Assembly: GCF_022045235.1 (NCBI RefSeq)
Contig: NW_027266286.1
Coordinates: 1,255,856 to 1,319,855 of the forward strand
Length of the DNA: 64,000 nucleotides
Direction: 5' to 3'
DNA from: Haliotis cracherodii
Lineage: Eukaryota
Every line of letters starts with the position of its first letter. The first letter of the stretch is position 1. Below, piece by piece: positions 3,776 through 42,765 of this stretch. The position numbers and the translations under genes were made by a program. The notes below the pieces were generated by a model. That model worked only from the letters and a program-made list of their open reading frames with translations, was not told the DNA's origin and did not search any database.

Positions 3776-4993
3776 TAGGCCATGAGAAGTACTGCCATTC
3801 AATATTACCAATCTACTAGAGCTTCAAGAATTTTCCTCTATTCAGTTTTCAAATTTGGAATCAATATTTTTTCAAAGGGTTGCCTGGAATGGAAGTCACT
3901 AGTTTAAGCTCAAGAAGCTTTCTCATTGGCTAATGTCGACTTCCTGCTAACTATGTCATTGGTCGGTCAAAGTTCACGAAAGGTCGTTCTGCAGTGACCT
4001 GTAATGGGATATCCTCAGATCTATGTGTAGCGGTAGCACACTGAGATCTAGTTTTAATGAGACTGGGTGTGGTCAAGCCAGGGATCCTTATCAGCGAGAA
4101 TCTGGGACCCCTCTACACTGATCACAGACACTGACAAATAAATATAGCAGAGTAGCAACTGGTTTACTTGTGAATACATGGCTGCTGATCAAATAACATC
4201 TAACATCTCGTAACAGGGATGAATTCAGTGATTCTATATTGTGTACATAAACTAATCATTTTAATCTTATTTCAGGTTTTAGTGATCTGGCAGACGACGA
4301 CTTGTCTATATATAACTTGCAATCAGTTGTCAGTCCAGCTGCCTCTTGTTGTTATGTTTCCTGGACAGTTCTGTGTCACAGGGCTGGTTCCTTTAGGTTT
4401 GTGGTATTAAGTCTACTTGGATTGATCTATTTTTATATCAGTGTGTTTGCTGTCTTAACAATAGCAGCACACTGCCCTCCAGTTGTAGTTTTGGCCAACT
4501 GAGAGGATGCCTGGCCTGCCAGCGGTTGTAGTGTTACTGTCCAACATAACATCCCTTCTAGACCATAACACAGTGGCATCATATCTTCTCCAACACTTCC
4601 ATGTTCCCTTATTATTGTCCATCAGTATCGTCGTTCTTTCAACCGAATGTCCATTTGTTTTTTTCCCTACACAACTTATATTCAAGGCACTAACGTCATA
4701 ACTAATGACATTTCATAGATAACAAAACAGGCACAATGCTTTTATCGAATTATATTCCAAAGGAATAAAAGGGTTTCCATGACAACAACGCTGATAATGG
4801 TGTAAACGATATGCATAATAAAACCATATATGCTTGTGACCTTACAGTACTTCATCAACAACACACAAAACATGTGTAACAGAGTTACGGATGACAAAAT
4901 GAAATAATATATATTATGCAGCATATACCAAAACAAAGTACAGCAAAATTAACAAAACATCCATTTTGCTGTGTATCCCCGAACACCAATCTA

Positions 4994-5427
4994 ACACACC
5001 ATAGTCTTGGTACTATTGTTTATCTTCTCCACGGTGTTTACAAGTTCTGGGAACAGAAGATGGAACATCCTTCCCAGTGTCTTCGTCTTCTGACGTTCTC
5101 CCAGATCACCCAACATCTTCGCTGCCGCAGTCAGCCAATCATCTGCCAGTTCCAGTGATTGACAGACGAGGGGGTGTTTCTTATCCATTGCTTTGCAAAA
5201 CTGGATTCCTTGACTCAGTGATAGAAATATCTCAGACACGTCCATTCTCTGAGATATGGTTGCCAACTCGATTTTACTGGAAAGAATCTTGCCCAATTCC
5301 CTTTCGCCATCTTTGAGCAGACGGTCATCTGTCAGGGGGAATAACTCTGGGCAGAGAACCTCCAAGATGACAAGAATAGTTATCACTGTAGCAACAAGAT
5401 CTTGGATGTCTCCTGTGACACTTGTGC
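4994..5427 (-). CDS. PARP4: PARP4-like terminal coding exon (..TSVTGDIQDLVATVITILVILEVLCPELFPLTDDRLLKDGERELGKILSSKIELATISQRMDVSEIFLSLSQGIQFCKAMDKKHPLVCQSLELADDWLTAAAKMLGDLGERQKTKTLGRMFHLLFPELVNTVEKINNSTKTMVC). Stop TAG at 4991-4993.
   Basis: Acceptor aaaccttttgcag|GC completes the Gly codon from the previous exon. Aligns with human PARP4 C-terminus ..ECLLDLIATMLVLQFIRTRL..PWAFEAIKQASEWVRR..CPRLELGNDWDSATKQLLG. Confidence 0.85.
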
Positions 5428-6049
5428 CTGCAAAAGGTTTGAGACAGAATTACAGCAACACAATTACAACACGTCTACCTAAGCTGAAATCAACCTGTGT
5501 ATGGTTTGAGACAGAATTACAGTAACACAATTACAACACGATGTCTACCTAAGCGGAAATCAACCTGCGTACGGTAGTAATGACAACTCAACATGCAAGG
5601 TAAGGAATCCTGTTTGAAATAGCTACAGATGCTGTGATTAGTCCATCAACTTCACTATTGTCTAAACATATACTCACCACCAAAAGAAACCTATAGAGAA
5701 GTATGTACGTAAAGAAGAGACGTTTCCAATGTGTACCACAGAACTATCAGCCACGGGTTACTGCTGAGTTACTTTATTCTTATCACGATATGCTACATGT
5801 GATTTCCAAACTTTACATCTAGAGTCACGGATCTATGACATCACATGTGATGCGTTCATGAGCGTCCATTCACACAACATAACAGTATGTTCGTTTATGC
5901 ATCGAACCAATCTAATATCTCTTGAATATGAGTAATTCTTCATATATCAACCCAAATGTATGGTATGCGTGTTTCTTTTGGCGGTGAGTATACACATGAG
6001 AACACACAGTGTGTGGCCTTAGTTTGTCATCATGGAAGAAAATAGAAGA

Positions 6050-6320
6050 CTGAGTGAGTGAGTTGGGCTTGACGCCGCTTTTAACAGTATTCCAGTCACA
6101 GCGTGTCAGCTTAATGTGTGTGTAAAGCCGGAAGTGATGCAGGTCTCAGACGTTTACCACTTCTGTGAAACCCATGAGCACAGGTATGGTGCTGACAAAC
6201 CTAGAAACATAATCAGGGCGAACCGGGATTCAAACCCACATTCATAGGTTTCTGGCGTGCCCAAGGGACACAACTCTGCACAGCGAATAGTGGTGCCTTA
6301 GACGACTTGGCCACCTGGGC
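6050..6320 (-). mobile_element. SINE family B copy, about 280 bp. Long tRNA-like head GGGGGCACAGGTGGCCCAGTCGTCTAA..GGGTTCGAATCCCGGTTCGCCC on the minus strand, the same core as family A, (GAGT)n tail.
   Basis: Further copies at 16745-17020, 42480-42765 and 45900-46195 (all minus). Partial copies at 21035-21165 (minus), 19338-19400 and 51985-52095 (plus). Confidence 0.75.
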
Positions 6321-6534
6321 CCCCAGATAATAGGAGAATATGATAGAATGCTGTTAATCCAAACCAATCTAATGACAGTGTGACATTGAATGTGTTCTTA
6401 ATACACCCTGAACAGTATTTCACTCATACGCCAGTCAAAGAAAAGTACCACTGTTAAAAGCCCATGACTACGTGTGTCTAGCCAAGGGTCGTAATCAGGG
6501 ATGCAAACCCATGACCAGCAGATCCTGCTCCATT

Positions 6535-6835
6535 AGTCTTTTGTTTGTTTGTTGTTTAACGCCCACTCAGCAATATTCCAGCTATATGACGGCGGTTTGT
6601 TAAATAATCAAGTCAGGGCCTGACAATCCAGTGATTGACATCATGAGCATGATTCATGCAATTGGGATCGATGACATGCATCAACCAAGTCAGCGAGCCT
6701 GACCACCCGATCCCGTTAGTCGCCTCTTCAGACAAACATACTCTCCTTTTGTGGCTAGCATGGGTTGCTGAAGACCTGTTCTACCCGGGATCTTCACGGT
6801 TCTCCGGGTCAGTGAGTTGTGACAACCTATACCAC
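6535..6835 (-). mobile_element. Repeat family C copy, about 290 bp. (TTGT)n at its plus-strand start, core ..ctcagcaatattccagctatatgacggcgg.., internal duplicated gtcgcctcttacgacaagcat.
   Basis: Further copies at 11200-11445, 21880-22140, 32285-32545, 58475-58770 and 63935-64000 (same orientation), and 16245-16500 (opposite). Strand call assumes the (AACA)n-type run is a 3' tail. Confidence 0.6.
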
Positions 6836-7292
6836 TCGGCCTCTGCCGTGTTACGAAGAAGGAGCACAGACAAGGTCCTTCTTCCACAAGTATATCACAG
6901 CAACAGACAGACTCCCATCATAGACCAATGACAGTCGTATACAGCCTTATGATGGCATCGTGGACTGAGACCAGGATATTTACAGGGAGCTTCGGTGAAC
7001 CAGTGCACAGTTGCTTCCCCTTGGGCATGCCAGGAACCGAGGACCATTGGTTCGAATCTTAGATCTCGCCTTCTTGGCTTGTCAGCACCCGTGCTCGTGG
7101 ATTTCACCCAAGTAGTAAATGTCTAAGACCTGCATCACTTTGGGCTTTCTTTCCACATCAAACTGACGCACTGTGAAATTGCAGACAATTAAATATTCTT
7201 TTGTTTCTTTTAAGAAATATTGTATTGAAAATTCAGTTACATTATTCTCAAAACAAGACAATAAGACTCATGAACTGTTTGGAAACCGTTAC

Positions 7293-7392
7293 CTAGAGAC
7301 CGAAGTCCAGCCTTCATCAACAGTTCCCTGTAGTCATGGCTACGGATGCACAAAGCTGTATCAAGGGCACTGCCGAATCGCCATGATCCATC
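7293..7392 (-). CDS. PARP4: PARP4-like penultimate exon (DGSWRFGSALDTALCIRSHDYRELLMKAGLRSL).
   Basis: Acceptor gtcttttgtcag|GAT, donor TAG|gtaacg (phase 1). Human has DGFWKLTPELGLILNLNTNGLHSFLKQKGIQSL. Confidence 0.8.
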
Positions 7393-7519
7393 CTGACAAA
7401 AGACATAATCACATAAAATGTTGCACACGGCAAGAAACGTAATGCACGAGTACACAGTAGAATATACTCTTCTCATAGCTGAATCAACTTGTACGGAATT
7501 ATTGTAATGACCAAGGGGA

Positions 7520-7705
7520 CAGAGAGTGATTGTGTGAGTGAGTGAGTATGGTTTTATGCTGTTTTTAGCAATATTCCAGCAATATCACAGCAGGGGACAC
7601 CAGAACTGGGCTTCACACATTGTACCCATGTTGGGATTCAAACCTGGGTCTTCTGCGTGACGAGCGAACACTTTAGCCACTAGGCTACCCGATCGCCCCC
7701 CAAGG
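7520..7705 (-). mobile_element. SINE family A copy with (GAGT)n at its plus-strand start.
   Basis: Sequence identity to the other family A copies. Confidence 0.75.
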
Positions 7706-7749
7706 GGACAGCTCAAGAGTTGTTGGAAAATGTCTTATTCTTTATTTGG

Positions 7750-8110
7750 AGGGGGGACGATGAAATTCTCATTTAAGTAAGATCTTAGTGTTCACCACTA
7801 CTAGGCAAAGTTCTGATGACATCCCATTACAGGTCACATCAGAATTCATGCAACCAACCAGAGTGTCATTTACAAGGCAGTGAAAGTGACAGCCGGAGTG
7901 TGTTTCCTAATCATGCAAACCTAAAAAATGTCAAGCGGTATGACAGATTCCGAATGCTAGACATCGTCTATCTCTTACTTGAATCGAAGTGACTTTCATG
8001 GGTAATAGTGCCATACAACCTCGGCCATTCATTTGACATTACTAAATTCTTTTGGTTCAGTTTGCAAATTTGGAATCAAGAACTTTGTCAAAATATTTTT
8101 CAAAGCATAG
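7750..8110. repeat. Dispersed repeat family F copy. The related copy is at about 3400-3900, there split by a family A SINE.
   Basis: Shared blocks gaaagtgacagccggagtgtgtttc, aatcatgca..aaaaatgt and ttcagtttgcaaatttggaatcaag. Confidence 0.5.
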
Positions 8111-8270
8111 TCTGGTAGTCATGTACAGAATTTTGTTTGATACTTCTAGCGGCATTCCATTTGTATTTAACTCAGGTGAAGTTATTGTAACGAATGTGTC
8201 GTTGGTATTGATCAAAGCTTAATGGAGAAATAATACCCTGGATTAACGAGGATGCTTGACGCCCACTCAC

Positions 8271-8827
8271 CTGATTCTGTAGTCGGAGGATGATCTGGAT
8301 ATTGTCTTGAGGTATGGGGGCCATGTAGTGGGATGCAGCAGTGGTCACATGATCCCCGAGTTCAAGTCCTGGTGGTGCCGCCCCTCCCATCCCATCTCTG
8401 AACCCTGTGGTGCTGCCACACATCAGACTGCTAGACGGAGATTGGAAGCTGACTGACATCTTTCCTCCATGGGAATCATGAGTGATGCTACTGAGGCCTG
8501 TTGTCTCTTGAGCCACATCCATCAGCTGGTCAGCAAGGGATACTAGGGATGTCCTGTTGATCCCTTGTGACGGGGAAAACAGCTGAGACGCCATGTGTGC
8601 GAAGGGACTAGGTCCCTGGGATATTCCAGAGACCACAAATTCTGCAGAGTGTTTGTTTACTGTGCTAGTCACTCCAACCGCCACTGGTGGCTTGCATATA
8701 GTTCTCGGGAAACCTGGACTGACAGATGGGGCTCCACCTCCTCCTCCAAACAGTAATGGCATTCCATCAAAGACGGGATGAGACGGAGCTGGAACATCGG
8801 CCATAGGTATCTCATCTGGATGGGGCA

Positions 8828-8858
<31 letters not shown>

Positions 8859-10055
8859 CTGTTGCTGTGGCATTCCAAAACCCCTACTCTCATATGTTTG
8901 TGGCATTGCATTCTTTGTTCCAAACAGGGAACTACTTTTCTCAGGAGATGGATATGCAAATATTGGATGAATAGGTAAATCCTGGAATCCTGGGGGTTTC
9001 TGCTTGAAGCTGTCCGTGTGAGATGGCACTTGCACATTACAACCAAATCCAGATCCAAAGGAAGATTTTTCAGCATGTTTAGACGCATCTACTGCTCCGA
9101 ATGACAAACAAGTGGAAGCCATTGTTGAACCACCAAATCCAGATCCAAAGGAGGATTTTTCAGCATGTTTAGACGCATCTACTGCTCCGAATGAGAAACC
9201 TGTTGCAGCCGTTGTTGAACCACCAAATCCAGATCCAAAGGAAGATTTTTCAGCATGTTTAGACGCATCTACTGCTCCGAATGACAAACAAGTGGAAGCC
9301 ATTGTTGAACCACCAAATCCAGACCCAAAGGAGGATTTTTCAGCATGTTTAGACGCATCTACTGCTCCGAATGAGAAACAAGTGGAAGCCGTTGTTGAAC
9401 CACCAAATCCAGATCCAAAGGAGGATTTTTCAGCATGTTTAGACGCATCTACTGCGCCGAATGAGAAACCTGTTGCAGCCGTTGTTGAACCACCAAATCC
9501 AGACCCAAAGGAGGATTTTTCAGCATGTTTAGACGCATCTACTGCTCCAAATGAGAAACCTGTTGCAGCCGTTGTTGAACCACCAAATCCAGATCCAAAG
9601 GAGGATTTTTCAGCATGTTTAGACGCATCTACTGCTCCGAATGAGAAATTTGCTGGCTTTCCCACTAGACTGTCTGCCTGCATACTCTGCGAAGCAGGTA
9701 CCACCATGCCAGAGCTCCCAAATCCAGATCCACGTGTCACATGACTGACGTGTTGGAGTCCCGGCAGTACCACTCCCTCCTTCCTGTCTGGGGGCATGCC
9801 TGAACCACCAACTGTACATCCAAGTGAAAAGTTGATTGGGAAATCCAGTTCTGCTCCACTTGGACTCACGCTCCAACCATCATATGGAGTTCGAAGTAGT
9901 TGCTTCTCTGTCCTTTTGTGCGTCATACCAGCTTGTGTTTCTTCTGCTTCTTGTTCGAGAATGTAAGAACTGTCAATGTCCATCCCGAAGAGATCTTCCT
10001 CTGGCTGTTCTCCCAAGAAGCCAAATGACTTCACGTTTTCTCCCACACCTGTCAT
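8271..10055 (-). CDS. PARP4: Giant low-complexity exon of PARP4-like. Acidic FG motif GEQPEEDLFGMDIDS at the N-terminal end. About 7 repeats of a 40-aa unit (ANFSFGAVDASKHAEKSSFGSGFGGSTTAATGFS), encoded by a 120-bp DNA tandem repeat at about 9050-9660. Q13 run from a CTG-type microsatellite at 8830-8870. Gly/Pro-rich segment. Ends ..HYMAPIPQDNIQIILRLQNQ.
   Basis: Open frame of 595 codons on the minus strand, ending at a strong donor CAG|gtgagt (8265-8270). The tail IPQDNIQIILRLQNQ plus the next exon DGSWRF aligns with human PARP4 VPWTELLSLQTE-DGFWKL. The 5' boundary is unresolved: candidate acceptor acag|GT at 10049/10048, otherwise ATG at 10053-10055. The ORF-track ORF continues artefactually to 8172. 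Confidence 0.65.
9050..9660. repeat. 120-bp coding tandem repeat, about 5 units, inside the giant PARP4-like exon. Encodes the 40-aa FG repeat.
   Basis: Near-identical 120-mers. The plus-strand ORF 9112-9744 is its antisense artefact. Confidence 0.85.
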
Positions 10056-10057
10056 AA

Positions 10058-10500
10058 CATAGCCAGCAAGGTATTATTGGTCGGTGACGATTGTACATAG
10101 CCAGCAAGGTATTATTGGTCGGTGACGATTGTACATAGCCAGCAAGGTATTATTGGTCGGTGATGATTGTACACAGCCAGGAAGGTATTATTGGTCGGTG
10201 ATGATTGTACATAGCCAGCAAGGTATTATTGGTCGGTGATGATTGTACATAGCCAGCAAGGTATTATTGGTCGGTGACGATTGTACATAGCCAGCAAGGT
10301 ATTATTGGTCGGTGATGATTGTACATAGCCAGCAAGGTATTATTGGTCGGAGACGATTGTACATAGCCAGCAAGGTATTATTGGTCGGTGACGATTGTAC
10401 ATAGCCAGCAAGGTATTATTGGTCGGTGACGATTGTACATAGCCAGCAAGGTATTATTGGTTGGTGATGATTATACATAGCCAGCAAGGTATTATTGGTC
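10058..10500. repeat. 39-bp minisatellite, about 11 units (catagccagcaaggtattattggtcggtgacgattgta), immediately upstream of the giant exon.
   Basis: Direct periodicity. Confidence 0.9.
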
Positions 10501-10739
10501 GGTAACAATTGTCCAAACTATTTGTGAAGTGGAATGTCCCGAAGTCACGAGGGCAATCGCGATGACAAATTAAATTTTAAAGTTGAAAGGGATACAGTGA
10601 TTATCTAGATACATCTACTTGTGTCAACAGTTTAAATAAAATGAAAAAAAATAGGATTATCAACACATTTAACCATATATAACTATATATTGTATGCACT
10701 TTACCAGTTTATTTACACGTCTGGCAAATGTACTGTACA

Positions 10740-10900
10740 TTGAGTGAATGAGTGAGTATGGTTTTACGTCACTTTTCGCAATATTCCAGCAATAACACGG
10801 CGGGGGACACCAGAAATGGGCATCACACATTGTCGGAAATCGAACCCGTGTTTTTGGGTGGTGAGTGAACGCTTTATCCACTAGGCTATCCGACCACCCC
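10740..10900 (-). mobile_element. SINE family A copy.
   Basis: Sequence identity to the other family A copies. Confidence 0.75.
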
Positions 10901-11689
10901 TATTGTACATTGAACATTCATGATGTGTGTTTTGTCATATAACAAACCAAGTCTTATTTATGATGTATATTAATGTACATTATTGTATATTACTATATCA
11001 TTAGACATATATCTGTATTAAAATAGTTATGGTACTGGTGGAGCCGGCTACAAGGTCAACATCAAGATACAGGATAAAGTTGATATTTCCAATACTGAAA
11101 ATCATGGGTGGTGAGTTGTACACTTGTACGTGTCACGTGGAAGTTTCCCCTCTCGGACACATTGAACATGTCAATATGTAAACATGTTTCTTTCTTTCTT
11201 TCTTTGTTGTTTAACTAGGCACTCTGCTATATTCCAACTATATGACGGCAGTCTGTAAATAATCGAGTCTGGACCAGACAATTCAGTGATTGACATCATG
11301 AGCATCGATCCACGCTATTTGGCTACGATGACATGCATCAACCAAGTCAGCAAGGCTGACTACCCGATCATATTAGTCGCTTCTTACGACAAGCATAGTC
11401 ACTTCTTACGACAAGCATGGGTTCTCTGAAAACCTATTCTACCCAGGTACATCAATCTAACCAAGCTACAGTCCACATGCAATGGTCTATCAACCATGAC
11501 CAAGATGACGGTCTATTGTTACAAGTCCAGGTACACAAGAAGTGTCAGGTCTTGATAACCCCTGGTAATCAGCATTCAACTGCTGTCAACTATTCATCTT
11601 GTCATTAAAATCTGTCGATAACTACATCACCGTTCACACTAACTGACACAATAACGTAGCCAATCTGTCCCATTCCACAGGGCAATCTA

Positions 11690-12225
11690 AGCAACGGCCA
11701 TAGGTCTATGTTAAAGTAAGGGTCTTTAGATCATCTTAGCACTCAACGGTCGTAAGTCTATGTTAAAGTAAGGGACTTCAGATCATCTTAGCACTCAACA
11801 ATCGTAAGTCTATGTTAAAGTAAGGGTCTTTAGATCATCTTAGCACTCAACAGTCGTAAGTCTATGTTAAAGTAAGGGTCTTATGATCATCTTAGCACTC
11901 AACGGTTGTAAGGCTTTGTTAAAGTAAGGGTCTTAAGATCATCTTAGCACTCAACAGTCATAAGTCTATTTTAAAGTAAGGGATTTCAGATCATCTTAGC
12001 ACTCAATGGTCATAAGTCTATTTTAAAGTAAGGGTCTTAAGATCATCTTAGCACTCAACAGTCATAAGTCTATTTTAAAGTAAGGGTCTTAAGATCATCT
12101 TAGCACTCAACGGTCATAAGTCTATGTTAAAGTAAGGGTCTTAAGATCATCTTAGCACTCAACAGTCATAAGTCTATTTTAAAGTTAGGGACTTAAGATC
12201 ATCTTAGCGCTTAGAACGCTTTGTC
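11690..12225. repeat. 60-bp minisatellite, about 9 units (agtaagggtcttaagatcatcttagcactcaacagtcataagtctattttaa).
   Basis: Direct periodicity. Confidence 0.9.
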
Positions 12226-12297
12226 AAAAAGAGTCCTGGGATCCAACTTGGCATTTTTTCTTTAAAATGTTGGTACTAAAAGCTCAAGTTATCTTAC

Positions 12298-12802
12298 CTG
12301 CCGAGTATCGACTTCTGTCTCTGTCTCTACTTTTTGATCTTGATCTTCTGTCCCTTGCATCTTCAACACTTCCAGTTGGAGGAGGCATTGTCCTGGAGGA
12401 GTCCGGAGGTGGGGGTGGAGGAATGGCAGCACTCATGTTGGCGCTCCTGGCAGCTGCCAAGGGAACTGAAGAACCACCCCTGATCAATCCACCAATTTTG
12501 GCCCCCAATAACAATGATCTAGTTTTGGTCAAAGCGTCATGTTCTATGGGAGGTGGAGGTGGTGGAATATGACTTCTGGAAGGGGGAGGCGATGGAGGGG
12601 GGGGGTACATGACTTCTAGCAGGTGTAGGGGGAGGGGGAGGCACAGACACCCCAGAAGGGGGTGCTTGTGCTGCTCCAGGGGGTGGCGGGGCCCACCTGC
12701 TATGTCTGGAAGTGGGGGGTGGTGGGGGTGGGGGCACAGCACTTCCAGTAGTTTTGGGAAGCTTTTTTGACAGCTCATTTTTTGCAAGGAATAGTTTTTC
12801 AC
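12298..12802 (-). CDS. Coding-like ORF, frame B, overlapping frame A by 266 nt. Pro-rich, then an RS/RD-rich tail (..EDARDRRSRSKSRDRDRSRYSAG). Ends at a strong donor CAG|gtaagat (12292-12297).
   Basis: Strong GTAAGA donor immediately after an open frame. Frame A and frame B overlap across G/C homopolymer runs, so either a small intron or a homopolymer indel connects them. Confidence 0.35.
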
Positions 12803-13465
12803 TCAATTCAAGCTGGGGGACACTACCCATCCGAGGATCAGGGCGTGTGTCAAATCTCCCACAAAGAAGCTGGGTTGAATATTGAGGCTGGTCAATAACC
12901 TTCTTCAGCTGTGTGCCACCACCTATTTGATTAAGCAGGGAAGCCCGACTAAAACTTCTCGTAGCTTGCATTTTTGAGCATTGGAACAGCTCCCCTACCG
13001 CAGGGAGTGGTGGTGGGGGTGGGGGTGGTGGCATTCTTCCTAATGCCGCTTTTCTGGGCATGGCCTCCTGTCTGACAGACTGCAGTGGCGGCGCAGCTCT
13101 GAAGAATGAATAGATGAATGAACATCCACCCCTACCTCTACCTCTATCCCCACCCCTACCTCTATCCCCAACCCCACCCCTACCTCTACCCCTACTCCCA
13201 CCCCCATCCCCACCTCCACCGTCATCAAACAATCCAAACCCCATATCTTCATCGTCTGACTCCTCTGACTCATCCAACTCGTCATCAAGGCAGCTGGCTG
13301 CCACGCTATCACCCAGGTTGGCTTGTACTGATTCTATGGCTGACGCAATGTCTAAGTCCCCAGTCTTAACCAACATGTCACGCATTCTACGTGGTTCCAA
13401 TTCTTCCAAATTCTCCTCAAAGGGTTCTTCTGGCAACAATTTGCCTGATAGCATATTGGTGGCAT
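12537..13465 (-). CDS. Coding-like exon or ORF, frame A. Encodes an acidic segment (..ASCLDDELDESEESDDEDMGFGLFDD), an RGG/Gly-Arg repeat, poly-Pro, a WH2-like motif (RSFSRASLLNQIGGGTQLKKV), and further poly-Pro runs.
   Basis: Excellent acceptor ttttttgttttag|AT at 13466-13467. Open frame to a stop at 12537. Same strand and inside the PARP4-like span. Could be a lineage-specific disordered PARP4 exon or a nested Pro-rich WH2-type gene. The composition partly follows C/G-rich low-complexity DNA, so the ORF may be over-extended. Confidence 0.4.
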
Positions 13466-16400
13466 CTAAAACAAAAAATGATTAAAAAAGACCATTTGTC
13501 AAGCGCTATCTCCATGCACATAACATGCTCGAAGTACAATGATAATGGGCGATCTTTTTCAATTTATCTTCCCTTCACTAACCCGCTAGGTGCGCTGACC
13601 CGGACGGTCCAACCTTAAACTGACGGCGCATGTGGTATGCGCGATACGAGCACTACTTGTTACTGTGACACCTATAGACAGTTAACTAGTATAACCTTCA
13701 CCTTTGTCGGCAACGGTCACACTTGTGTGTGGACAGCATATCTTTTCGCCTAAACAATGATTTATCTATTGCCATGTCCGGAAATATATGTTCCTTGATA
13801 TAATTATACATCAGGGATGACCACGACTGATTATATTGTATAGTTAACCACTAGATAGGCGTTCGAAGCGATGCGGTGAAATCAGCAGATCGTTCATCCC
13901 AGGTCGCTTTGTTGACGTTTTGCAATCGGCACGGAAAGTGTTGCCCTTGATGTATGAATATGAAAATTAAGTAGATTTTGTATACGTTCCTATATCTATG
14001 TTGTAGCATCGCCGAGCAGGCTACATCATATGCATGCATTTCAGTATGTACAACGGTGAGGCGATACGGTTACGCGAAATGTGAAGGTCTTATGCAACGT
14101 AAAGTTGCCCGTAGCCTCAATGTTGTGAATATTGACAGCAAGACATGTAAGTATTTGTCAGATATATAACAGAGAGCTCTGGTATTCTTTCAGGTTTGCA
14201 GAATCAATCAATTCATTGTGAAAACATTTTTAATTTCTTACATAAGTTACTTTGATCTTGATTAGATCAAAATAGATACAAATTAAATTGAGAAGATTAA
14301 ATTATGCAGTCTTATTCATTTCAGCCAGTCTCTCTAAAATCCAATCCTATTTTTCAGGCAATAATAAATGAATGAAAATTTAAGAAAAAATATACCTTGC
14401 CTGAGTGAATCAGTCAATATGCACAGTGACTAAAATCTTCAGTCAATATACATATTGGGCCTGTTTATAGACACTGACTGTAACATATGTAAGTATAATC
14501 TGTTACATGCAAAAACAAATAACATAAATAAATCCATTTATCTACTTTGAATGAATGTGGGGTTCAATTTGCATTTATTTAACCATCAGAAGATTTGATG
14601 ATAAACTTTCATATTCATATTTTCATATAAAATTCATATTTGCTATATGATAATAATATCTACAAAATATACTTTATACTACAGGTGTCTTGAAGTACTG
14701 TTGAATGAAAATCAGGATACTTAGATACAGCAGGATAGTGTGTTGGTTTGTATGGGAAATAATTTGTCAACATTAAAATAGATACAATGTTACTAAAACA
14801 AGAAAATAAAACAATGATTAAGTTCTATTTATGCATCATACACATTTTGTGGGGTAGTCAGTATAATTTGTTGTTTTTTGGGACACATCTCTGTAATTAA
14901 TTACTATTTTAAGAGCATGAGTATCAGAATTCTGTAAGAAATGATGGATCAACTAATTAACACCTGTGATGACTCAGAGCACTTAATGGTGGGACGTCAC
15001 ATGTTATAAGAGGCAGAATAATATGGGTAAATCTCTTATTTCAATGTATGATGACTGGTATGTATATTGCAACTGAGTAACTGAGTGCTTAGATCTAATA
15101 GATGCATGGTAGATGTTCATTTGGCCTATTTCTAAAAAAATAATATAAATTCAAATATTCAGATGCAACTTTAATTTTGATCTTAAAAGTAACATTTAAA
15201 ATCAGTTGTTTTATTATTTTTAACATTATTTGTTCTTAAAATATTTGTAAAGGTGCAGATGAATACTTACTATATAGATCACTGGTTAAGGCCTGTCAAA
15301 GTTGTCTGTGTGCTGCAAATGTTTGCGTATCACTAATTTTATTAAATTGAAGTCCATGGTAGTATTTGTTGAGATATGAATGCTTGAATTCTTGTGGGAA
15401 ATAACACAAAGGCTGATAAATAAAATGAGTTTGCATTATTTCATCGATGCAATATGTTAGCCCTGACTGACAGAATGCCTCGCTGTTTTCTGACGTAGAA
15501 AATACATTGGCAATATACCATTTTTCATGACCTTTTTCCCGCTATATTCCAAAGTGACAATTCGTCTTGTAGATGAAGACTCAACAGATGTTGATATTAT
15601 AAACTAATAATCACTACAAAATATGTGCTAGTTAAAAATATTCAGTTGTAAACGACCGTTTTTGAACGAAGGTGCAACAGGATAACTCTTTAGCTTGGCT
15701 CCGTCTCTACATGTCAGTAGTTGACGCAGCGTGCATAGATCCGGGAACCAGACCGGAAGCGACAGTTCGGTCCATCGCTTATATCATTTCAATAGGAGAG
15801 TTATTGCCCTTTGGAACAAAAAGATCGCCCATTATAGTAAAAAAAAACATTCCTTTAGAGGACTCAATGATGTCACTATTAAACACATTTTAAATGGAAA
15901 AATTGCCAGTGATTTCATGACATTTGAATAGCCAACCAAGAACGCCACCATACCGTTGTCTACAGTTTTGTGTGTATTTATAACTAAATGAGCATTCTGT
16001 GATGTTATAACTGTTGATTTATTTATTCAAAAGAATTGACTTCAGTTTGTGTTTTTACAGTTATGGAGGTACAACCGTAAAACCTGATGTTTGCACAGTC
16101 TGCACATCGGTTTTTATGTTTATTGCTCCATAAAAGTAAAATGAGTTTAAGTCAATTCTTAAATATCTATCTACCTCTGATAACAATATCTAGTGAGTGC
16201 TGTCTCTATATAGCGGTAGAATGAGGTTGACCCGTGAAGATCCGGGGTAGAATAGGTCTTCAGCAACCCCTACTACTTGCCGTAAAAGGCGACTATGCTT
16301 GTCGTAAGAGGCAACTAACAGGATCGGGTGTTCAGACTCACTGACTTGGTTGATGCATGTCATCGATCCTAGTTACATGGATCGATGCTCATGATGTCAA

Positions 16401-17679: not shown

Positions 17680-17990
17680 AAAATTGCATCACAATGCATT
17701 TACAGACCATTGTGATGTCATTGGTTACCATGACATCACAATCAAATGACATCAATAATGGCGCTGCTTAGATATAGTGAAGCTGTTAGCAGTACTTTTT
17801 ACATTAAAGACACTGCTTTTTACTGTCTACAAAACTAAAAAGTTGAAAGAATGATGTTGGGTGATAAATAAAATCTCACCCTCGTTTTTTTAATATCAAA
17901 TATATCAAAACTCGTTGATAAAAGTGGAAAAACTCCTCGGCAAGCCTTGGAGTTTTTCAAATTTTATCAACTCCCAATCTATCGGTGATT
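17680..17990. repeat. Dispersed repeat family D copy, about 300 bp with an internal palindrome atcacaatg..cattgtgat. The second copy is at 35440-35760.
   Basis: About 80 percent identity between the two copies, including flanking ..cccacag.aagatatc..gggtgagatcaag. Confidence 0.6.
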
Positions 17991-19134
17991 ATGTTAAAAC
18001 ATACTCAATAATATAATGGAAAAGAATTTTGATGATTGGAATAAATAGCATCTTAAATGACTGTTTAAATAATATATTCTGATATGGTGTTATTTCAATT
18101 GCAGGTTTTACCAAAGATCTTCTAGATAAAGATTACCATAACCAGGGCCACCTTTGTGAATTGTCGGAGACTTTTTTTTGCATTGAAAAATTTGATAAAA
18201 AAACATTAAGGTTTCGCCCGAATTCGTTATTTCCATCGCAGAAACAATTATGGTGACATTTAATTGTCAAACTACAACAAATATAACTTTTAAGAAGTCA
18301 AAGTATGGCAGTTATGTATATATCTATCCATTTTCTGTCAACTAAGGTTTGTTTCAAGGTGTCAGTAGCGGTAATATGATCGTGGTTGCTGTAAATAATG
18401 GTGAGTTGGTAAAGCAGACCTTATGGAACGGGGTAAACGGAAGTTGTAACTACCAGATGGACACCAAATTTAGTGTAAATCTTATTGAATGACAGTTTGA
18501 TAAAAATGAATAAAATGGATTACTGGGGTACGTAGATTATAAACCTGAGTCCAGATATAGAATTAAACAGTTTTTATTACTGATGGTGTAACGACAGGAT
18601 TAACTTGCGTAATTCAATACAGACTTGTTGATAATCTATTTCCGATGACAGATCATGACTAGACATAGTTTTAGGTTGGAGGTCCGGCTTATCTATAGCA
18701 CATAATATTTTGATACAGTTCTAAAGGAACCAGTTAATACCTCGGCTTATCTATGAGATCAGCTTATCTCCGGTCATATACAGTATAAAAGTGGGGCAAG
18801 AGCGTGCCTCTCTCATCTCTCGGGGCATTTATGTTGTTTTTGCAACGCTGTGTACAAGGCTGAAGATTGGAGAGGTGATCATGGCACAATGTTTCCACAT
18901 TCAGTATTTAAGGTTCTACTGGAAGTATTCATATCTCACAAATAAGTATTTGGACAAAATGGCATTGGGCAGCCATACATATTTTTCAATTATGCCTTGA
19001 ACAATGACGAAATTTCCATGAAGTTCAAGTAATCTCAACCTCTAAACCTGTTTTTCGAATCAAAGATGTCTGCCTGGCAGCCATGCTGAATACCTTGAAC
19101 ATGACCTTATTTCATCCTGTCATCCATTTCTGCA

Positions 19135-19559: not shown

Positions 19560-20880
19560 ATCTGTTCACACAAGATATCTCAGTCAACATCTACACATGG
19601 ATATCTCAGTCAACATCTACACATGGATATCTCAGTCAACATCTACACATGGATACTGCCTACATCCACACAGGGATATTGCCTACATCTACACATGGAT
19701 ATTGCCTACATCTACACATGGATATTGACCTACATCTACACATGGATATTGACCTACATCTACACATGGGTATTGCCTACATCTACACATGGATACTGAC
19801 CTACATCTACACATGGATATTGACCTACATCTACACATAGATACTGACCTACATCTACACAGATACTGACCTACATCTACACATGGATATTGACCTACAT
19901 CTACACATGGATATTGACCCACGTCTACACATGGATATTGACCTACATCTACAAGATATTGACCTACATCTACACATGGATATTGACCTACGTCTACACA
20001 TGGATATTGACCTACATCTACACATAGACCTTGACTTTTATCTACACATGGATATTATCCTACAGTGTTAAAGGGGATCTGTGCTTCTCACTGTCAACAT
20101 CTACATATGGATATTATCCTACAGTGTTAAAGGGGGTCTGTGCTTCTCACTATCAACATCTACATATGGATATTATCCTACAGTGTTAAAGGGGGTCTGT
20201 GCTTCTCACTGTCAACATCTACATATGGATATAATCCTACAGTGTTAAAGGGGATCTGTGCTCCTCACTGTCAACATCTACATATGGATATTATCCTACA
20301 GTGTTAAAGGGGATCTGTGGTTCTCACTGTCAACATCTACATATGGATATTATCCTATAGTGTTAAAGGGGGTCTGTGCTTCTCACTGTCAACACCTACA
20401 TATGGATATTATCCTAGTGTTAAAGGAGATCTGTGCTTCTCACTGTCAACATCTACACATGGATATTATCCTACAGTGTTAAAGGAGATCTGTGCTTCTC
20501 ACTGTCAACATCTACACATAGACCTTGACTTTTATCTACATATGGATATTATCCTACAGTGTTAAAGGGGATCTGTGCTTCTCACTGTCAACATCTACAT
20601 ATGGATATTATCCTACAGTGTTAAAGGAGATCTGTGCTTCTCACTGTCAACATCTACACATGGATATTATCCTACAGTGTTAAAGGGGATCTGTGCTTCT
20701 CACTGTCAACATCTACACATGGATATTATCCTACAGTGTAAAAGGGGGTCTGTGCTTCTCACTGTCAACATCTACACATGGATATTATCCTACAGTGTTA
20801 AAGGGGGTCTGTGCTTCTCACTGTCAACATCTACATATGGATATTATCCTACAGTGTTAAAGGGGGTCTGTGCCCTAATT
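19560..20880. repeat. Compound satellite: a 24-bp unit (atctacacatggatattgacctac), about 20 copies at 19560-20040, then a 59-bp unit (..atggatattatcctacagtgttaaaggggatctgtgcttctcactgtcaacatctac), about 14 copies.
   Basis: Direct periodicity. The plus and minus ORFs at 19433-20886 are repeat artefacts. Confidence 0.9.
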
Positions 20881-22429
20881 AATTAATGCCATTGTTTGTG
20901 TGTCATCACTAACTGCCAGACATGATTCAATACACAAACAAACAAAGAAGCAGCACCTCCAATTTGCCTTTTTTAAGGACTTATGTTCATCTTTTGAAAA
21001 AAATCAATCAACCGGGTAATACTTTCCAAATAGGAACCTAAGGAACATAATTAGGGCGAACCGGGATTTGAACCCACAATCAGAGGTTTCTGGTGTGCCC
21101 AAGGGACACAACTCTACTCAGCAAATCGCGGCGCCTTAGACAACTGGGCCACCGTGCCCCCCATTCAGTCAAAGAGAATGTACAGCATTAATGCCCTGTT
21201 CTGTAGGCCCTGGGTTTTAGGACTGCCATGCCTGAGATAGTCATGGAACCTCCACAGGCAAACACTTTTCCGTTAACGTGTGATAAACTGTTTTACTTTC
21301 TGACATTCTTAACGCAAAATGCCCATGTATTGCTTTTAAACCTTGTTTAACGGTGAATATTGATGAAACTTTAGAATTAAATCCAGGGAAGGATGTAGAT
21401 CATAATAAAAAAATGTGTTTTATGATTTTCAACACTGGCCATTATACAGGGAACACCTTAGGTCACAGCATGAATCTCTTGAGAGTATATTTGTCTATTT
21501 GTTTTTAAACACCACACTCAGCGACATTCCATAAACAGTGTTGTGTAAAAATCTTGAATTACTAGAAAAATCATGATAGGAGCAAAATATCATTACCGTG
21601 CTTTGCCAAAGGAAACGATGACTCTTCCTGGAAAGAAAATCAGTAATTATGGAAACATTCAATTTTCTCTTAACTTACAATTGAATCTCAGATTCTAAGT
21701 GGCTGAGACCCATTCTATTAGTTTCAATGTACCCCGCTAACATGTAAGGTATATTTCTTAAGTTCCCCGCTCGAATTACTAAACTGCTGACATAACATTT
21801 GCAACATGCCAACTGCTATTCCGTATCTTGAATTAATGATGTAAGACGAAATTTCTCAAAAGCAGTATGACTGTTCTGTTCTGTTTGTTATTTAACGCCC
21901 TACTTAGCAATATTCCAGCTATATGATGGCGGTCTGTAAATAATCGAGTCTGGACCAGACAATCCAGTGATTGACATCATAAGCATCAATCCACATAATT
22001 GGGTTACAAACAAGTCAGCTAGCCTGACCTCCCGATCCTGTCAGTCGCCTCTTACGACAAGCATAGTCGCCTCTTACGACAAGCATGGGTTGCTGAAGAC
22101 CTATTCATGCCCGGATCTTCACGGGTCAGTATAACTGTAAGAAAATATAACAACTGTAAAAGAGGCTTGATTGAGTGAGTTTGAATGGGCAGTGATGAAC
22201 GAAGATGGGGGGACTCTGAATTATTTTGTACTGTCTTCCATAAATAATAACTGAGAACATATAAACCTCAACAGGTCAAGTGAAAATACTGCAGAACGAG
22301 GACAAAATATTATCTGCTTGTCCTGCAGGGCACGTACGGTTTAAGACATTCTAAGAGCCCTGGTGTTACTGTTAGAAACATTTCACCAGGAATAAGGGAC
22401 CAATCTCTTGTCCTCCATATCATGTGATA

Positions 22430-23045
22430 CAGGTTTCCTACACAGAGTTGTCCCAAACAAACAACATGTAACCAGCCTGGATGGCTAGGTTCCCGACACA
22501 GAGTTGTCCCAAACAAACAACATGTAACCAGCCTGGATGGCTAGGTTCCCGACACAGAGTTGTCCCAAACAAACAACATGTAACCAGCCTGGATGGCTAG
22601 GTTCCCGACACAGAGTTGTCCCAAACAAACAACATGTAACCAGCCTGGATGGCTAGATTCCCGACACAGAGTTGTCCCAAACAAACAACATGTAACCAGC
22701 CTGGATGGCTAGGTTCCCGACACAGAGTTGTCCCAAACAAACAACATGTAACCAGCCTGGATGGCTAGGTTCCCGACACAGAGTTGTCCCAAACAAACAA
22801 CATGTAACCAGCCTGGATGGCTAGGTTCCCGACACAGAGTTGTCCCAAACAAACAACATGTAACCAGCCTGGATGGCTAGGTTCCCGACACAGAGTTGTC
22901 ACAAACAAACAACATGTAACCAGCCTGGATGGCTAGGTTCCCGACACAGAGTTGTCCCAAACAAACAACATGTAACCAGCCTGGATGGCTAGGTTCCCGA
23001 CACAGAGTTGTCACAAACAAACAACATGTAACCAGCCTGGATGGC
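22430..23045. repeat. 58-bp minisatellite, about 10.5 units (ggttcccgacacagagttgtcccaaacaaacaacatgtaaccagcctggatggcta).
   Basis: Direct periodicity. Confidence 0.9.
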
Positions 23046-38110: not shown

Positions 38111-39095
38111 CTCTCAGGGCAGACGCTCTACCACTAGACCATGGAGGCGGTCTCCGAGTGGATGCTCTACCATTAGAACATGGAGGCGGTCTCCAGGCGG
38201 ACGCTCTATCACTAGACTATGGAGGCGGTCTCCAAGTGGTCGCTCTACCACTAGACTATGGAGGCGGTCTCCGGGCGGACGCTCTATCTCTAGACCATGG
38301 AGGTGGTCTCTGAATGGACGCTCTCCCACTTGACCATAGTGGCAGTCTCCGAGCAGACGCTCTACCACTAGACCATAGAGGCCGTCTCCGAGCAGACGTT
38401 CTACCACTAGACCATGGAGGCGGTCTCTGAATGGACGCTCTACCACTAGACCATGGAGGCGGTCTCCGAGCGAACTCTCTACAACTACAACATGGAGGCG
38501 GTGTCTGAATGGACGCTCTACCACTAGACCATGGAGGCGGTCTCCGAGCGAACGCTCTACAACTACAACATGAAGGCGGTGTCTGAATGGATGCTCTACC
38601 ACTAGAACAGGAAGGCGGTCTCCGAGTGGATGCTCTTCCACTAGACCATGGAGGCGGTCTCTGAGCGGACGCTCTACCACTAGACCATACAGGCGGTCTC
38701 CGAGTGGACGCCCTACCACTAGACCATGGAGGCGGCCTCTTAGCCGACGCTCTACCACTAGACGATGGAGGCGGGCTCAGAGCGGACGCTCTACCACTAG
38801 ACCTTAGAGGCGGTCTCCAAGTGGATGTTCTACCACTAGACCATGGAGGCGGTCTCGGAGCGGACGCTCTACCACTAGAAGATGGAGGCGGTCTCCGAGC
38901 AGACGCTCTACCACTAGACGATGGAGGCGGTCTCCGAGCAGACGCTCTACCACTAGACGATGGAGGCGGTCTCCGAGCAGACGCTCTACCACTAGACGAT
39001 GGAGGCGGTCTCCGAGCAGACGCTCTACCACTAGACGATGGAGGCGGTCTCCGAGCAGACGCTCTACCACTAGACCACGGAGGCGGTAACCAACA
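38110..39095. repeat. 39-bp minisatellite, about 25 units (gacgctctaccactagaccatggaggcggtctccgagcg), derived from the tRNA-like D-arm/acceptor segment of the adjacent family E element.
   Basis: The unit contains TCTACCACTAGACCATGGAGG, the reverse complement of the tRNA motif CCTCCATGGTCTAGTGGTAGA. ORF-track ORFs at 38114-39193 come from this repeat. Confidence 0.8.
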
Positions 39096-39306
39096 ACATC
39101 GGTACATGGTATAATATGTACCATCAATCTTAGGACAGCTTTATTTTGAACAGCACTGTAGCTCACCTTAGCATATATATATTCTACAGCCAAACTGTTC
39201 AGATATTTGTCAATTTCAATAGTCTGATATTAGATATTGAAACTTACCTTTATGGATAAATTTGTTCATTAGAAATAAATCAAAGATTCAAGAGAATGCT
39301 TCTTAC

Positions 39307-40379: not shown

Positions 40380-41018
40380 CTGCAGAAAAGTTCCACTACA
40401 CGTCAGTTGGAGTCACACAGTCCTTTATAAAGATCTTACAACACTCGGTAATAAGGAAAATTGGGCCTAAAAAGTATAGGTATACCATTTTTGGTTGTGC
40501 CTTGTTTTACAAGACAATTACACTCATTAATCTCCGCATATTAAAAGAATCCCACAGAAACAGGAATACAAACATCATTGTATTTCATTGTGTCCAGTGA
40601 TACTTATGTGGAAGATTGACAAGCAATGTTCCAGTTCCTCATCTCCAGTTGATTCACCTGAAGCAATATCATGTTGTCTTTGACTGAGCATTATAAGTAC
40701 CAGCATTTCTTCCTGAAACCCAAGCATGGGGGGTGTGCATCACAATAAAATATTGTAAACTACAATGTCCTTATAAAAGAAATTCATGCTGTATTCTGGA
40801 ATATCAAGCAAATGTCATCTTGCCAATGACACAAGTTCTACATTCATGCAGTGTTCAGACACATGGTGATTGATGTAGGTATTTACAGTATGGGATGGTA
40901 GTCGTCCTGTATTCGTGGGACTTATTAGACACATGGTGATTGATGTAGGTATTTACAGTATGGGATGGTAGTCTTCCTGTAGTCGTGGGACTTATTATAA
41001 ACAATCTGTGTACCCCAC

Positions 41019-41152
41019 CTGTGCAGCCAGATCCACCAGTTTGGCGCGGATGTGAACCCCTACCAGCTCCACGGCCATCTTGTTGCCCTCGGACACCAGA
41101 CCTGCCTCCACCTTCGACAGGGGGTCCTCCACACCCAGCACGTCAGACAAAT
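41019..41152 (-). CDS. PARP4: PARP4-like exon 13, linker before VIT (DLSDVLGVEDPLSKVEAGLVSEGNKMAVELVGVHIRAKLVDLAAQ).
   Basis: Acceptor ttcctgccacag|AT, phase continuous with exon 12 (G+AT=D). Donor CAG|gtgggg. Human has GLQDASGNLVPLEDVHIKGRIIDTVAQ. Confidence 0.7.
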
Positions 41153-41159
41153 CTGTGGC

Positions 41160-42425: not shown

Positions 42426-42479
42426 AATAAGAACTGATGAGATGAGGAGCATATTGATGGACAGCTGTAGAAACTGGTA

Positions 42480-42765
42480 GAGTGAGTGAGTGAGTGAGTG
42501 AGTTGGGTTTAATGCCACTTTAACAGATTTCCAGTTATATCACAGCGTGGGAGTATTGATGCAGGTCTGGGACGTTTACCACTTCGATGAAACCCATGAG
42601 CACAGATATGGTGTTGACAAACCTAGAAACATAATTGGGGCGAACCGGAATTTGAACCCACAATCAAAGGTTTCTGGCATGCCCAAGGGACGCAACTCTG
42701 CACAGCGAATTACGGTGCCTTCGACAACTGTGCCACCCGTGCCCCCTGCGACTGGTAGCGGCCCC
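42480..42765 (-). mobile_element. SINE family B copy, intronic, about 130 bp below PARP4-like exon 12.
   Basis: Sequence identity to the other family B copies. Confidence 0.75.

Follow-up and report, generated by a model that had tools for sequence, protein, structure and literature searches.

A probable PARP4 linker exon with proline-rich, WH2-like and stalk-tail-like motifs in the abalone Haliotis cracherodii

The DNA analysed here, referred to as the window, is a stretch of 64,000 nt of Haliotis cracherodii (assembly GCF_022045235.1, contig NW_027266286.1, positions 1,255,856–1,319,855 of the forward strand) that contains a PARP4-like (vault PARP) gene and, within the span of that gene, a proline-rich coding block at positions 12298–13465. 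All coordinates are positions within the window unless another record is named, and both the block and the PARP4-like gene lie on the minus strand. We consider it probable (about 0.6), judging from sequence comparison, that this block is one genuine internal coding exon of about 389 codons, in phase 1 at both ends, belonging to the variable linker of PARP4 between the half that carries the VIT and vWA domains and the vault-docking domain. The evidence comes from an orthologous exon at the syntenic site of Haliotis rubra, from the agreement in both species between its donor phase and the acceptor phase of the next PARP4 exon, and from substitution patterns that point to conserved short motifs.

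The exon, its counterpart in Haliotis rubra and its link to the vault-docking half of PARP4

The PARP4-like gene extends over roughly 51.4k–5.0k. By tblastn with PARP4 fragments, the exons of the PARP regulatory/catalytic, VIT and vWA regions were located in collinear order at 48.2k–24.4k, and a BRCT-like open reading frame (ORF) was found at about 51.4k; the order BRCT, PARP regulatory/catalytic, VIT, vWA and C-terminal MVP-interaction domain (MVP-ID) of PARP4 was found on this one strand. The last exons (8.5k, 7.4k and 5.4k) matched the H. rubra protein LOC124279140 (P0006), which carries a precomputed annotation as PF26156, PARP4_MVP-ID, and the C-terminus encoded in the window matched residues 1569–1706 of human PARP4 (E = 7.8e-7). 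Since a local Pfam scan of the assembled C-terminal protein reported neither PF26156 nor any other family, the MVP-ID is identified by the annotation precomputed for P0006 together with the human PARP4 match. The block under study sits between the VIT/vWA half and the vault-docking C-terminal half, in an interval of poor conservation.

The coordinates, sequence and splice boundaries of the block agreed with the original prediction, which had been made by reading the sequence alone, and all the peptides listed in it were recovered (SEESDDEDMGFGLFDD, the Arg-Gly-Gly (RGG) block, the run of eight prolines, RASLLNQIGGGTQLKKV and the RS/RD tail). Splice sites were scored with a crude consensus position weight matrix (PWM), built on base frequencies of the general metazoan consensus. 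The two sites bounding the block (Table 1) scored in the top range of the homology-confirmed PARP4 exons of the window, with acceptors between −2.9 and 4.9 bits and donors between −2.2 and 7.4 bits. A second AG in the same phase, 21 nt into the exon and with 13444 as the first exon base, scored −0.5 bits. Two overlapping frames are open in the block as assembled: frame A for 314 codons, from the acceptor to a TGA at 12539–12537, and frame B for 172 codons, running through the donor. The switch between them falls at a run of nine C (C9), and a run of eight would yield a single ORF. Proline codons (CCN, with varied third bases) are found in frame A before the run and in frame B after it, and deletion of one C generates a single ORF of 388 codons with three similar units (…PPPPPPPTSRHS…PPPPPTPARSHVPPPPSPPPSRSHIPPPPPP…). 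Because removal of one C gives the same architecture as that of the H. rubra exon, in which the frame is continuous, the homopolymer indel already suspected in the original prediction is the likeliest cause of the overlap; this would be one extra C in the C9 run, most probably an assembly error and less so a real disabling mutation.

The orthologous exon was identified in H. rubra (QXJH01000247.1, locus around P0006; L001) at positions 3947–5116 of that locus. It consists of 1170 nt with one ORF in phase 1 at both ends, it lies upstream of the large exon that follows in both species (referred to as the giant exon), and synteny holds with the giant exon and with the MVP-ID exons. The corrected exon of the window matched L001 3964–5109 in one frame (tblastn, E = 3e-30). 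The H. rubra acceptor, tttctttcag/GC (slashes mark exon boundaries), has the same phase 1 as that of the window, and the donor junction, GCAG/gtaagata, is identical in the two species (12-mer). The H. rubra exon retains, in the same order, the acidic motif EESEDEDMGFGLFDD, a Pro-rich patch, the WH2-like motif RASLLQQIGNGKQLKKVI within RASLLQQIGNGKQLKKVIEPQ, long PPPPP repeats, and the RS-rich tail IPPPPPDVSRMSPPSQVDEDKRSGRSRKSTSRSRDRDLA.

The two genomes are distant, with introns unalignable overall and synonymous divergence (dS) saturated at 1.7 over the exon, so that the ratio of nonsynonymous (dN) to synonymous divergence across the whole exon, about 0.35, is to be read against a saturated dS. 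Within the exon, dN was well below dS in three islands: the acidic motif resembling a ribosomal P-protein tail (P-tail; 0.29 vs 0.94, ratio about 0.3), the WH2-like motif (0.23 vs 0.59), and the C-terminal tail (0.36 vs 0.98, about 0.37). The 35 aligned N-terminal codons are near neutral (0.73 vs 0.84). The P-tail segment shows 90% identity over 51 nt between the two species, and 17 of the 24 aligned residues of the WH2-like motif are identical, with synonymous differences. Judged on these comparisons, conservation is gathered in short islands amid rapidly evolving, predicted-disordered sequence; the pattern is that of a disordered region with short linear motifs, and a chance open frame in C/G-rich sequence is excluded. 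Low complexity alone, which the original prediction had named as part of a refuting outcome, does not account for the exon, given its syntenic conservation and the excess of dS over dN in the motif islands; part of the block, the RGG microsatellite, is of low complexity. Together with the acceptor and donor bounds, conservation in H. rubra bears out the earlier view of the block as coding, on the gene strand and internal. In H. rubra there is no in-frame ATG for about 50 codons past the acceptor, and conservation (L..KLL.EEP) begins within ten residues of it; because of these two features we take the exon to be internal and to require an upstream exon ending in phase 1.

On the downstream side, the original prediction had held the phases to be incompatible with the giant exon. 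This was not the case: in both species the phase 1 donor of the exon fits the phase 1 acceptor of the giant exon (in H. rubra acag/GTGTGGAAG, at 8573), and the junction codon G/GT reads Gly in frame. Within the intron, conservation with H. rubra is confined to about 200 nt after the donor and about 150 nt before the giant-exon acceptor. Regulated exons typically have such conserved intron sequence next to their splice sites. The conservation of both intron ends supports that the exon and the giant exon share one intron. In the window, these ends are tandemly amplified (52 nt × 9.9 at 11692–12208, and 38 nt × 12 at 10057–10512); both arrays derive from sequence that aligns with the conserved matching end of the H. 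rubra intron, and they represent amplified splice-proximal elements. This 2.2-kb intron contains tandem repeats, a copy of a SINE-like (short interspersed element) sequence and the conserved splice-proximal sequence, and no conserved ORF. On the sequence evidence, the link of the exon to the MVP-ID half is strong. The best fit among the options considered earlier is that of additional lineage-specific PARP4 exons, connected via exons that escaped detection, and the question of ownership appears largely resolved in favour of PARP4, with a conserved linker exon that is specific to the lineage and attached to the vault-docking half. Since the exon is in phase 1 at both ends, either its inclusion or its skipping keeps the frame.

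The vertebrate PARP4 linker occupies the same position in the gene, after the FTSFVAIE and D(I/L)LxY(V/M)xWE exons and before the MVP-ID, and it is likewise acidic and then Pro-rich, poorly conserved and presumably disordered; the PARP4 fragment of Ascaphus (P0030) has the Pro-rich sequence PPPPPPFYSSHPPPPPFYPSPSPPPPP at the linker position. Unlike the abalone exon and its neighbour, the PARP4 fragments retrieved contain no WH2-like motif, MGFGLFD motif or FG-like (Phe-Gly) repeat, and in the collections searched no sequence homolog of the exon was detected beyond H. rubra.

Motifs encoded by the exon and their possible partners

The exon is predicted to encode an intrinsically disordered linker. 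A single-sequence AlphaFold2 (AF2) model was of low confidence along its whole length, with a mean predicted local distance difference test score (pLDDT) of 46 and helices only at residues 24–33, 39–50, 173–179 (RASLLNQ) and 186–190 (LKKVI); the last two belong to the WH2-like motif. When a 61-residue segment was compared with all sequences of solved structures, only the WH2 repeats of N-WASP on actin were significant (3m3n, E = 6.5e-5; 2vcp, E = 9e-4). The alignment of SLLNQIGGGTQLKKV with ALLDQIREGAQLKKV of N-WASP is gapless (sLLnQIgGGtQLKKV vs aLLdQIreGaQLKKV), and the spacing LLxQIxxGxQLKKV is identical to that of the N-WASP WH2 on actin (2vcp, 3m3n). The canonical layout of a WH2 motif, with an amphipathic helix (LLxxI), a short linker and LKKV, is present and is conserved in H. 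rubra. The exon shares further traits with the N-WASP, WASP, WAVE, WIP and Ena/VASP proteins, as the poly-Pro tracts that flank its WH2-like motif are long enough for profilin. It differs from them in that it has a single, sub-threshold copy of WH2 and no GBD, WH1, EVH1 or SCAR domain, and in that the host protein is an ADP-ribosyltransferase. By inspection of both species, no connector helix or acidic Trp motif for Arp2/3, as in the verprolin-central-acidic (VCA) layout, was found downstream of the WH2-like motif, which sets it apart from a WASP-type nucleation-promoting factor; the sequence after LKKVI (DQPQYSTQLLCGRFDTRPD... in the window and EPQIARIQSNAP... in H. rubra) is unconserved between the two. 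A candidate second WH2 in frame B (TRSLLLGAKIGGLIRGG) was rejected, as it gave no Pfam match and is not conserved in H. rubra.

The acidic/hydrophobic motif closely copies the tail at the C-terminus of the ribosomal stalk proteins P0, P1 and P2 (SDDDMGFGLFD). By phmmer, ESEESDDEDMGFGLFD differed from the human P2 tail ESEESDDDMGFGLFD solely by one inserted Glu, and the copy, conserved in H. rubra, includes both Ser that are phosphorylated in stalk proteins (PMC11624264). In contrast to stalk proteins, the exon has no N-terminal dimerisation domain. The first 80 or so residues of the exon were considered as a P2-derived domain and this was rejected: the phmmer extension over 40–60 residues upstream needs the tail as an anchor, and the preceding 59 residues alone match no P protein. 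For this reason the claim is limited to a copy of the motif and does not extend to a domain derived from P proteins. The Gly/Arg block that follows is missing from the H. rubra ortholog in the alignment.

Some results speak against reading these segments as bona fide members of the families they resemble. With Pfam WH2 (PF02205; cutoff 23.1 bits), the window motif scored 16.2 bits in context and 20.2 bits as an isolated 41-mer, and that of H. rubra 17.4 and 21.9 bits, respectively. The WH2 claim of the original prediction is credible at the motif level, with N-WASP as the best structural match at identical spacing, and the profile hidden Markov model (HMM) test proposed with it gave only a near miss (16.2–21.9 vs 23.1 bits). 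Similarly, Pfam Ribosomal_60s (PF00428) matched the P-tail motif at 14.6–20.2 bits over profile positions 72–88 of 88, under its cutoff of 28.1 bits. Moreover, this motif is internal in both species (residues 63–81 of the 388-residue exon), and stalk proteins have it at a free C-terminus.

The adjoining giant exon contains 6.7 copies of a 90-nt tandem repeat (9042–9648) that encodes FG-like units of 30 residues (FSFGAVDASKHAEKSSFGSGFGGSTTAATG), as well as a Q13 run, and the repeat unit is conserved in H. rubra (L001, about 8765–9400). These tandem FSFG/SFGSGFG units in a Ser/Thr/Gly-rich spacer resemble those of FG nucleoporins. However, they form a young 90-nt tandem array in an exon that continues into the PARP4 MVP-ID, and with a score of 19.2 bits for Nucleoporin_FG (PF13634), under the gathering cutoff of 32.2 bits, the giant exon does not qualify as an FG nucleoporin. 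An FG-repeat block within a vault protein is unusual.

The exon might act as a flexible arm with short linear motifs on vault-bound PARP4, located past the vWA domain and ahead of the vault anchor. By analogy to known binders, its poly-Pro tracts could bind profilin or profilin-actin, or else SH3, EVH1 or WW modules, and its WH2-type motif could bind an actin monomer, and the enzyme or the vault would thereby be tethered to actin monomers or growing filaments. Poly-Pro flanking a WH2 helix and LKKV is the layout with which proteins of the WASP/WAVE/VASP type capture profilin-actin and G-actin. The DEDMGFGLFDD sequence may, again by analogy, recruit partners of the P-stalk or compete for them, namely translational GTPases, GCN2 and ribosome-inactivating toxins, and the RS-rich tail is likely a phospho-regulated or RNA-proximal segment. 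These are the partners described for the stalk-protein tail (PMC11624264, PMC6562825), which carries two phosphorylated Ser (PMC11624264). In mouse dendritic cells, Parp4, Mvp and Rplp0 were recovered as Evl/VASP interactors sensitive to an EVH1 inhibitor (PMC9581539), and this report suggests that vertebrate PARP4, too, may contact actin regulators through a proline-rich linker. No paper tying PARP4 to a WH2 motif was found in the literature search. The functions of vaults and of PARP4 are still largely unknown (PMC7913519).

We hold as a tentative and rather doubtful extension that vetigastropod PARP4 has a functional multi-motif arm, in which poly-Pro/WH2 engages profilin-actin and G-actin, the P-tail mimic fills the stalk pocket on translational GTPases, GCN2 or toxins, and the next exon adds FG repeats. 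If all of these worked, one polypeptide would link vaults and an ADP-ribosyltransferase with the actin cytoskeleton, the translation machinery and FG-type phases; all three associations have long been suggested for vaults, with no molecular link at hand to account for them. The region of PARP4 between the vWA and the vault-docking domains is usually treated as a featureless linker, and a conserved exon there would offer concrete hypotheses on the binding by which vault-bound PARP4 reaches its partners or substrates. In the linker, an N-WASP-type WH2 between poly-Pro tracts would be combined with an almost exact stalk-tail copy and with a block of FG repeats in the adjoining exon, and this would be a rare instance of the stalk-tail motif outside ribosomal proteins. 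The combination of motifs is unusual for PARP4, and the evidence is at the level of motifs; all functional statements made here derive from short-motif resemblance in two species.

Joining to the catalytic half and alternative explanations

Upstream, the exon would be joined to the exons for the catalytic, VIT and vWA regions via small and weakly defined exons at about 19.5k and 17.2k (Table 1). The mini-exon modelled at 17.2k would provide the first base of the split codon of the exon. It is well bounded and is open in two frames (RRGYAGVYATSEDTED or EEVMLEYMQLPKTLRM); the 19.5k candidate, of 131 or 139 nt, is also open in two frames, with two acceptors 8 nt apart. A chain threaded from the 24.5k exon to the stop at 4991 was free of stops over 1302 codons after the one-C correction, and without the exon 913 codons stayed in frame. 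The position of the weak donor of the 23.7k exon matches the end of the homologous ORF in an intron-poor animal contig (ENA ERZ25066847 ctg1160; L003), and acidic YFG..D-rich linkers follow the vWA region in this contig and in a fish PARP4 (P0020) as well. Under moderately strict splice thresholds, which would reject about one-third of the homology-confirmed exons, the 17.2k mini-exon was the sole acceptor/donor pair that passed between 23.6k and 13.5k. As modelled, the link of the exon to the catalytic half is only probable.

Several observations weigh against the assignment of the block to PARP4 as a working exon. As assembled, it contains a premature stop. The splice sites of the 19.5k exon scored poorly (−3.8 and −2.1 bits), and thresholds lax enough to admit it also admitted dozens of alternative connectors, which leaves the upstream chain not unique. 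The upstream intron flank is not conserved with H. rubra, and the H. rubra exon falls outside every called gene of its record. The cross-species comparison covers two species, the window and H. rubra. Finally, no protein in the collections searched contains the exon: searches of a collection of 5.8 billion proteins with the whole exon and with the two-species alignment gave no match among 8000 candidates each, and these are weak negatives, the candidates probably being flooded by low-complexity poly-Pro and P-tail words.

The absence of a convincing upstream partner, together with the unconserved upstream flank, is also what favours an unlikely alternative, in which the exon, the giant exon and the MVP-ID exons form a separate C-terminal transcription unit, driven by an internal or alternative promoter with its own 5′ exon to supply a start codon and one base. 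Its product could be a vault-docking scaffold without the PARP catalytic, VIT and vWA domains, either as a second isoform or through gene fission. The weak donor of the 23.7k exon fits this possibility, as read-through would meet a TAA at 23619–23617 that ends an N-terminal product, and in the H. rubra annotation the C-terminus is a distinct "uncharacterized" gene. Against it, the split in H. rubra coincides with an assembly frame break and probably reflects an annotation artefact, the vWA-proximal exons can be chained to the C-terminus in one stop-free ORF, the weak donor lies just where the homologous ORF ends in L003, and in vertebrates the MVP-ID and the catalytic domain share one polypeptide. 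No credible match to a conserved small exon was found in H. rubra in the 3.9 kb ahead of its exon, a stretch filled by a retroelement with terminal repeats. The TAA met on read-through of the 23.7k exon is in frame and lies just ahead of a better donor-like site; a short PARP4 isoform without the vault-docking domain, arising from this read-through, is conceivable.

The H. rubra gene models are unreliable in this region. One called gene of 736 residues (within 5278–9921) extends across tandem repeats that are intronic, and the reading frame of the giant exon is broken at about 9919–10001, inside a duplicated GGLGGDGVGFGG segment (L001 9860–10080). The separate annotation of the PARP4 C-terminus as "uncharacterized protein LOC124279140" is attributed to this frame break and to the faulty called gene. 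The abalone gene models examined miss the exon and present the C-terminus of PARP4 as a separate "uncharacterized" gene, and in the window the probable homopolymer error would truncate any automatic gene model.

Two further alternatives concern the C9 run instead of the ownership of the block. We regard it as quite unlikely that the exon is disabled or decaying, with a real extra C that leads, on inclusion, to a premature stop (...SHRT and stop), and with skipping of the exon, degradation of the mRNA or a PARP4 without the vault-docking domain as possible outcomes. The given assembly does read C9, with the stop that follows from it, and the PARP4 frame survives skipping. However, the 116 codons past the run stay open in the shifted frame, with Pro codons of varied third positions; the tail downstream of the run (IPPPPPD..SR..PP...ED.R..RSR.KS..R.R) is still conserved; and no second lesion was found, both splice sites being intact and strong. 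A lone lesion within a homopolymer of nine bases is what a sequencing or assembly error classically looks like. Very unlikely, in our view, is that the block consists of two exons separated by a cryptic intron of 121 nt (12696 to 12576), the removal of which would take out the C9 run and bring frames A and B together with no need for a sequence error. Suitable sites exist, namely a donor CAGCAG/GTGGGC (first intron base 12696) and an acceptor cttccag/AAGTCAT (first exon base 12575), with scores of 4.2 and 6.4 bits, respectively, and the removal leaves a stop-free frame of 348 codons. The excised piece, though, encodes frame-A Pro-rich repeats that align with those of H. rubra, which needs no intron; DNA coding for poly-Pro is a polypyrimidine tract by composition, so that high acceptor scores are expected by chance; and any donor/acceptor pair has a one-third chance of being of the length class needed. 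The other option of the original prediction, a separate gene on the same strand that sits inside a PARP4 intron and has no relation to PARP4, is hardly credible: the set of motifs (WH2, poly-Pro, RS and P-tail) is without precedent in described PARP4 proteins, but the block has acceptor and donor bounds and neither a conserved start codon nor a stop codon in both species, the 2.2-kb downstream intron holds no conserved ORF, and the sole phase-compatible conserved partner downstream, in both species, is the next exon of PARP4.

Feature coordinates, database searches and other elements of the window

The features discussed above are collected in Table 1.

Table 1. Positions in the window of the exon, of its motifs and of the PARP4-like exons considered for joining to it
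Feature	Positions	Strand	Remarks
vWA-proximal exon	24519-24418	minus	ends in phase 0; ...FTSFVAIETRDE
23.7k exon	23793-23650	minus	phase 0 to 0; ...DILEYVSWEVDKEAEEEEALMEMEM; weak donor ATG/GTAGTG, −1.3 bits
Candidate acidic exon MDIVEESGGYFGLGNSDEDLDFDLELCDDDSFDEEPPSMSHRF	19553-19423	minus	phase 0 to 2; MDIVEESGGYFGLGNSDEDLDFDLELCDDDSFDEE...; weak sites, alternative acceptor 19561; model only
Candidate mini-exon, 50 nt	17273-17224	minus	phase 2 to 1; ttgcttcgttgcag/...GATG/gtaatt; frame RRGYAGVYATSEDTED; model only
3′ splice site of upstream intron (polypyrimidine tract and AG)	13466..13485	minus	ttttttgttttag/ATG; first exon base 13465; PWM 5.2 bits
Exon under study	12298..13465	minus	1168 nt assembled; after removal of one C, 1167 nt, phase 1-1, 388 codons and split codons
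Acidic/hydrophobic motif LDESEESDDEDMGFGLFDD (peptide SEESDDEDMGFGLFDDGG)	13221..13277	minus	near copy of P0/P1/P2 C-terminal tail, internal
Gly/Arg (RGG-like) block	13125..13220	minus	hexamer/24-mer microsatellite (Tandem Repeats Finder, TRF, 13126-13220); lineage-specific
First poly-Pro tract MPPPPPPPPLP	13002..13034	minus	about 20 residues upstream of WH2-like motif; aligned with LFFPPPLPVIHP in H. rubra
WH2-like motif RASLLNQIGGGTQLKKVI	12894..12947	minus	poly-Pro-to-WH2 segment MPPPPPPPPLP...RASLLNQIGGGTQLKKVID
Poly-Pro repeat region	12548..12740	minus	three PPPPP-x-RSH-like units spanning the frame break; aligns to PPPPPPPPGRHAAPPPPPGLAPPPPPTSSHHEA in H. rubra
C9 homopolymer at the A/B frame switch	12597..12605	minus	C8 would yield a single ORF
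Arg/Ser/Asp-rich tail DARDRRSRSKSRDRDRSRYSA	12299..12361	minus	runs into donor; conserved as DEDKRSGRSRKSTSRSRDRDLA in H. rubra
5′ splice site	12286..12297	minus	GGCAG/gtaagata; last exon base 12298; PWM 7.1 bits
Giant exon	8271..10048	minus	phase 1 to 0; acceptor acag/GTGTGGGAG (GT start); first exon base 10048; FG-like 30-aa repeats
MVP-interaction domain exons	7392-7293, 5427-4991	minus	the latter ends at the stop, 4991

Further searches for the exon were negative within their scopes. A phmmer search with frame A against 1.84 billion representative sequences returned a lone match, to a bacterial TIR/TPR-repeat protein, which was rejected as spurious. Scans of JGI metagenomes with peptide patterns and with the conserved 32-nt DNA pattern of the P-tail gave no match, and exact-product look-ups of the 305-aa and 627-aa ORFs of the window found none on record. 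In Candidula (L002) and in L003, the 10-kb flanks that follow the PARP4 fragments downstream did not contain the exon.

In the region 14880–20388 of L003, a different arrangement was observed. An ORF at 17966–18361, on the same strand as and about 2.7 kb downstream of the PARP4-like FTSFVAIE exon, encodes an acidic linker-like stretch (CYFGSFDDFDDDDD..., cf. GYFGLGNSDEDLDFD in the window) fused in frame to the N-terminus of actin (Pfam Actin, 28 bits vs a cutoff of 27), and the ORF at 20152–20388 continues the actin sequence. This could be a fusion of PARP4 with actin, or else an actin-like neighbour gene extended by an acidic stretch. The fusion of an acidic linker with actin is a possible independent hint of the multi-motif arm.

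Long minisatellite arrays occur in PARP4 introns or flanks at 52349–54357, 40995–42518, 38114–39193 and 22313–23044; they yield spurious multi-frame ORFs of 200–500 codons that would mislead ORF-based gene finding. SINE-like copies are scattered in the introns (10672–10899, 7535–7594, 11174–11314 and 21903–22040, among others) and are also found in L001 (1653–1721). Their translations contain ...SITGLSGPDSIIYRPLSYSWNIAECGVKQQ... or ...CWNIAKSDVKPYSL..., and one family is 85% identical to a copy at the H. rubra locus. Upstream of PARP4, the ORF at 57292–57801 (minus strand) shows reverse-transcriptase-like motifs (YGVPTAPAIFPKTMDQILQG...NLDDILI) and corresponds to a retroelement fragment.

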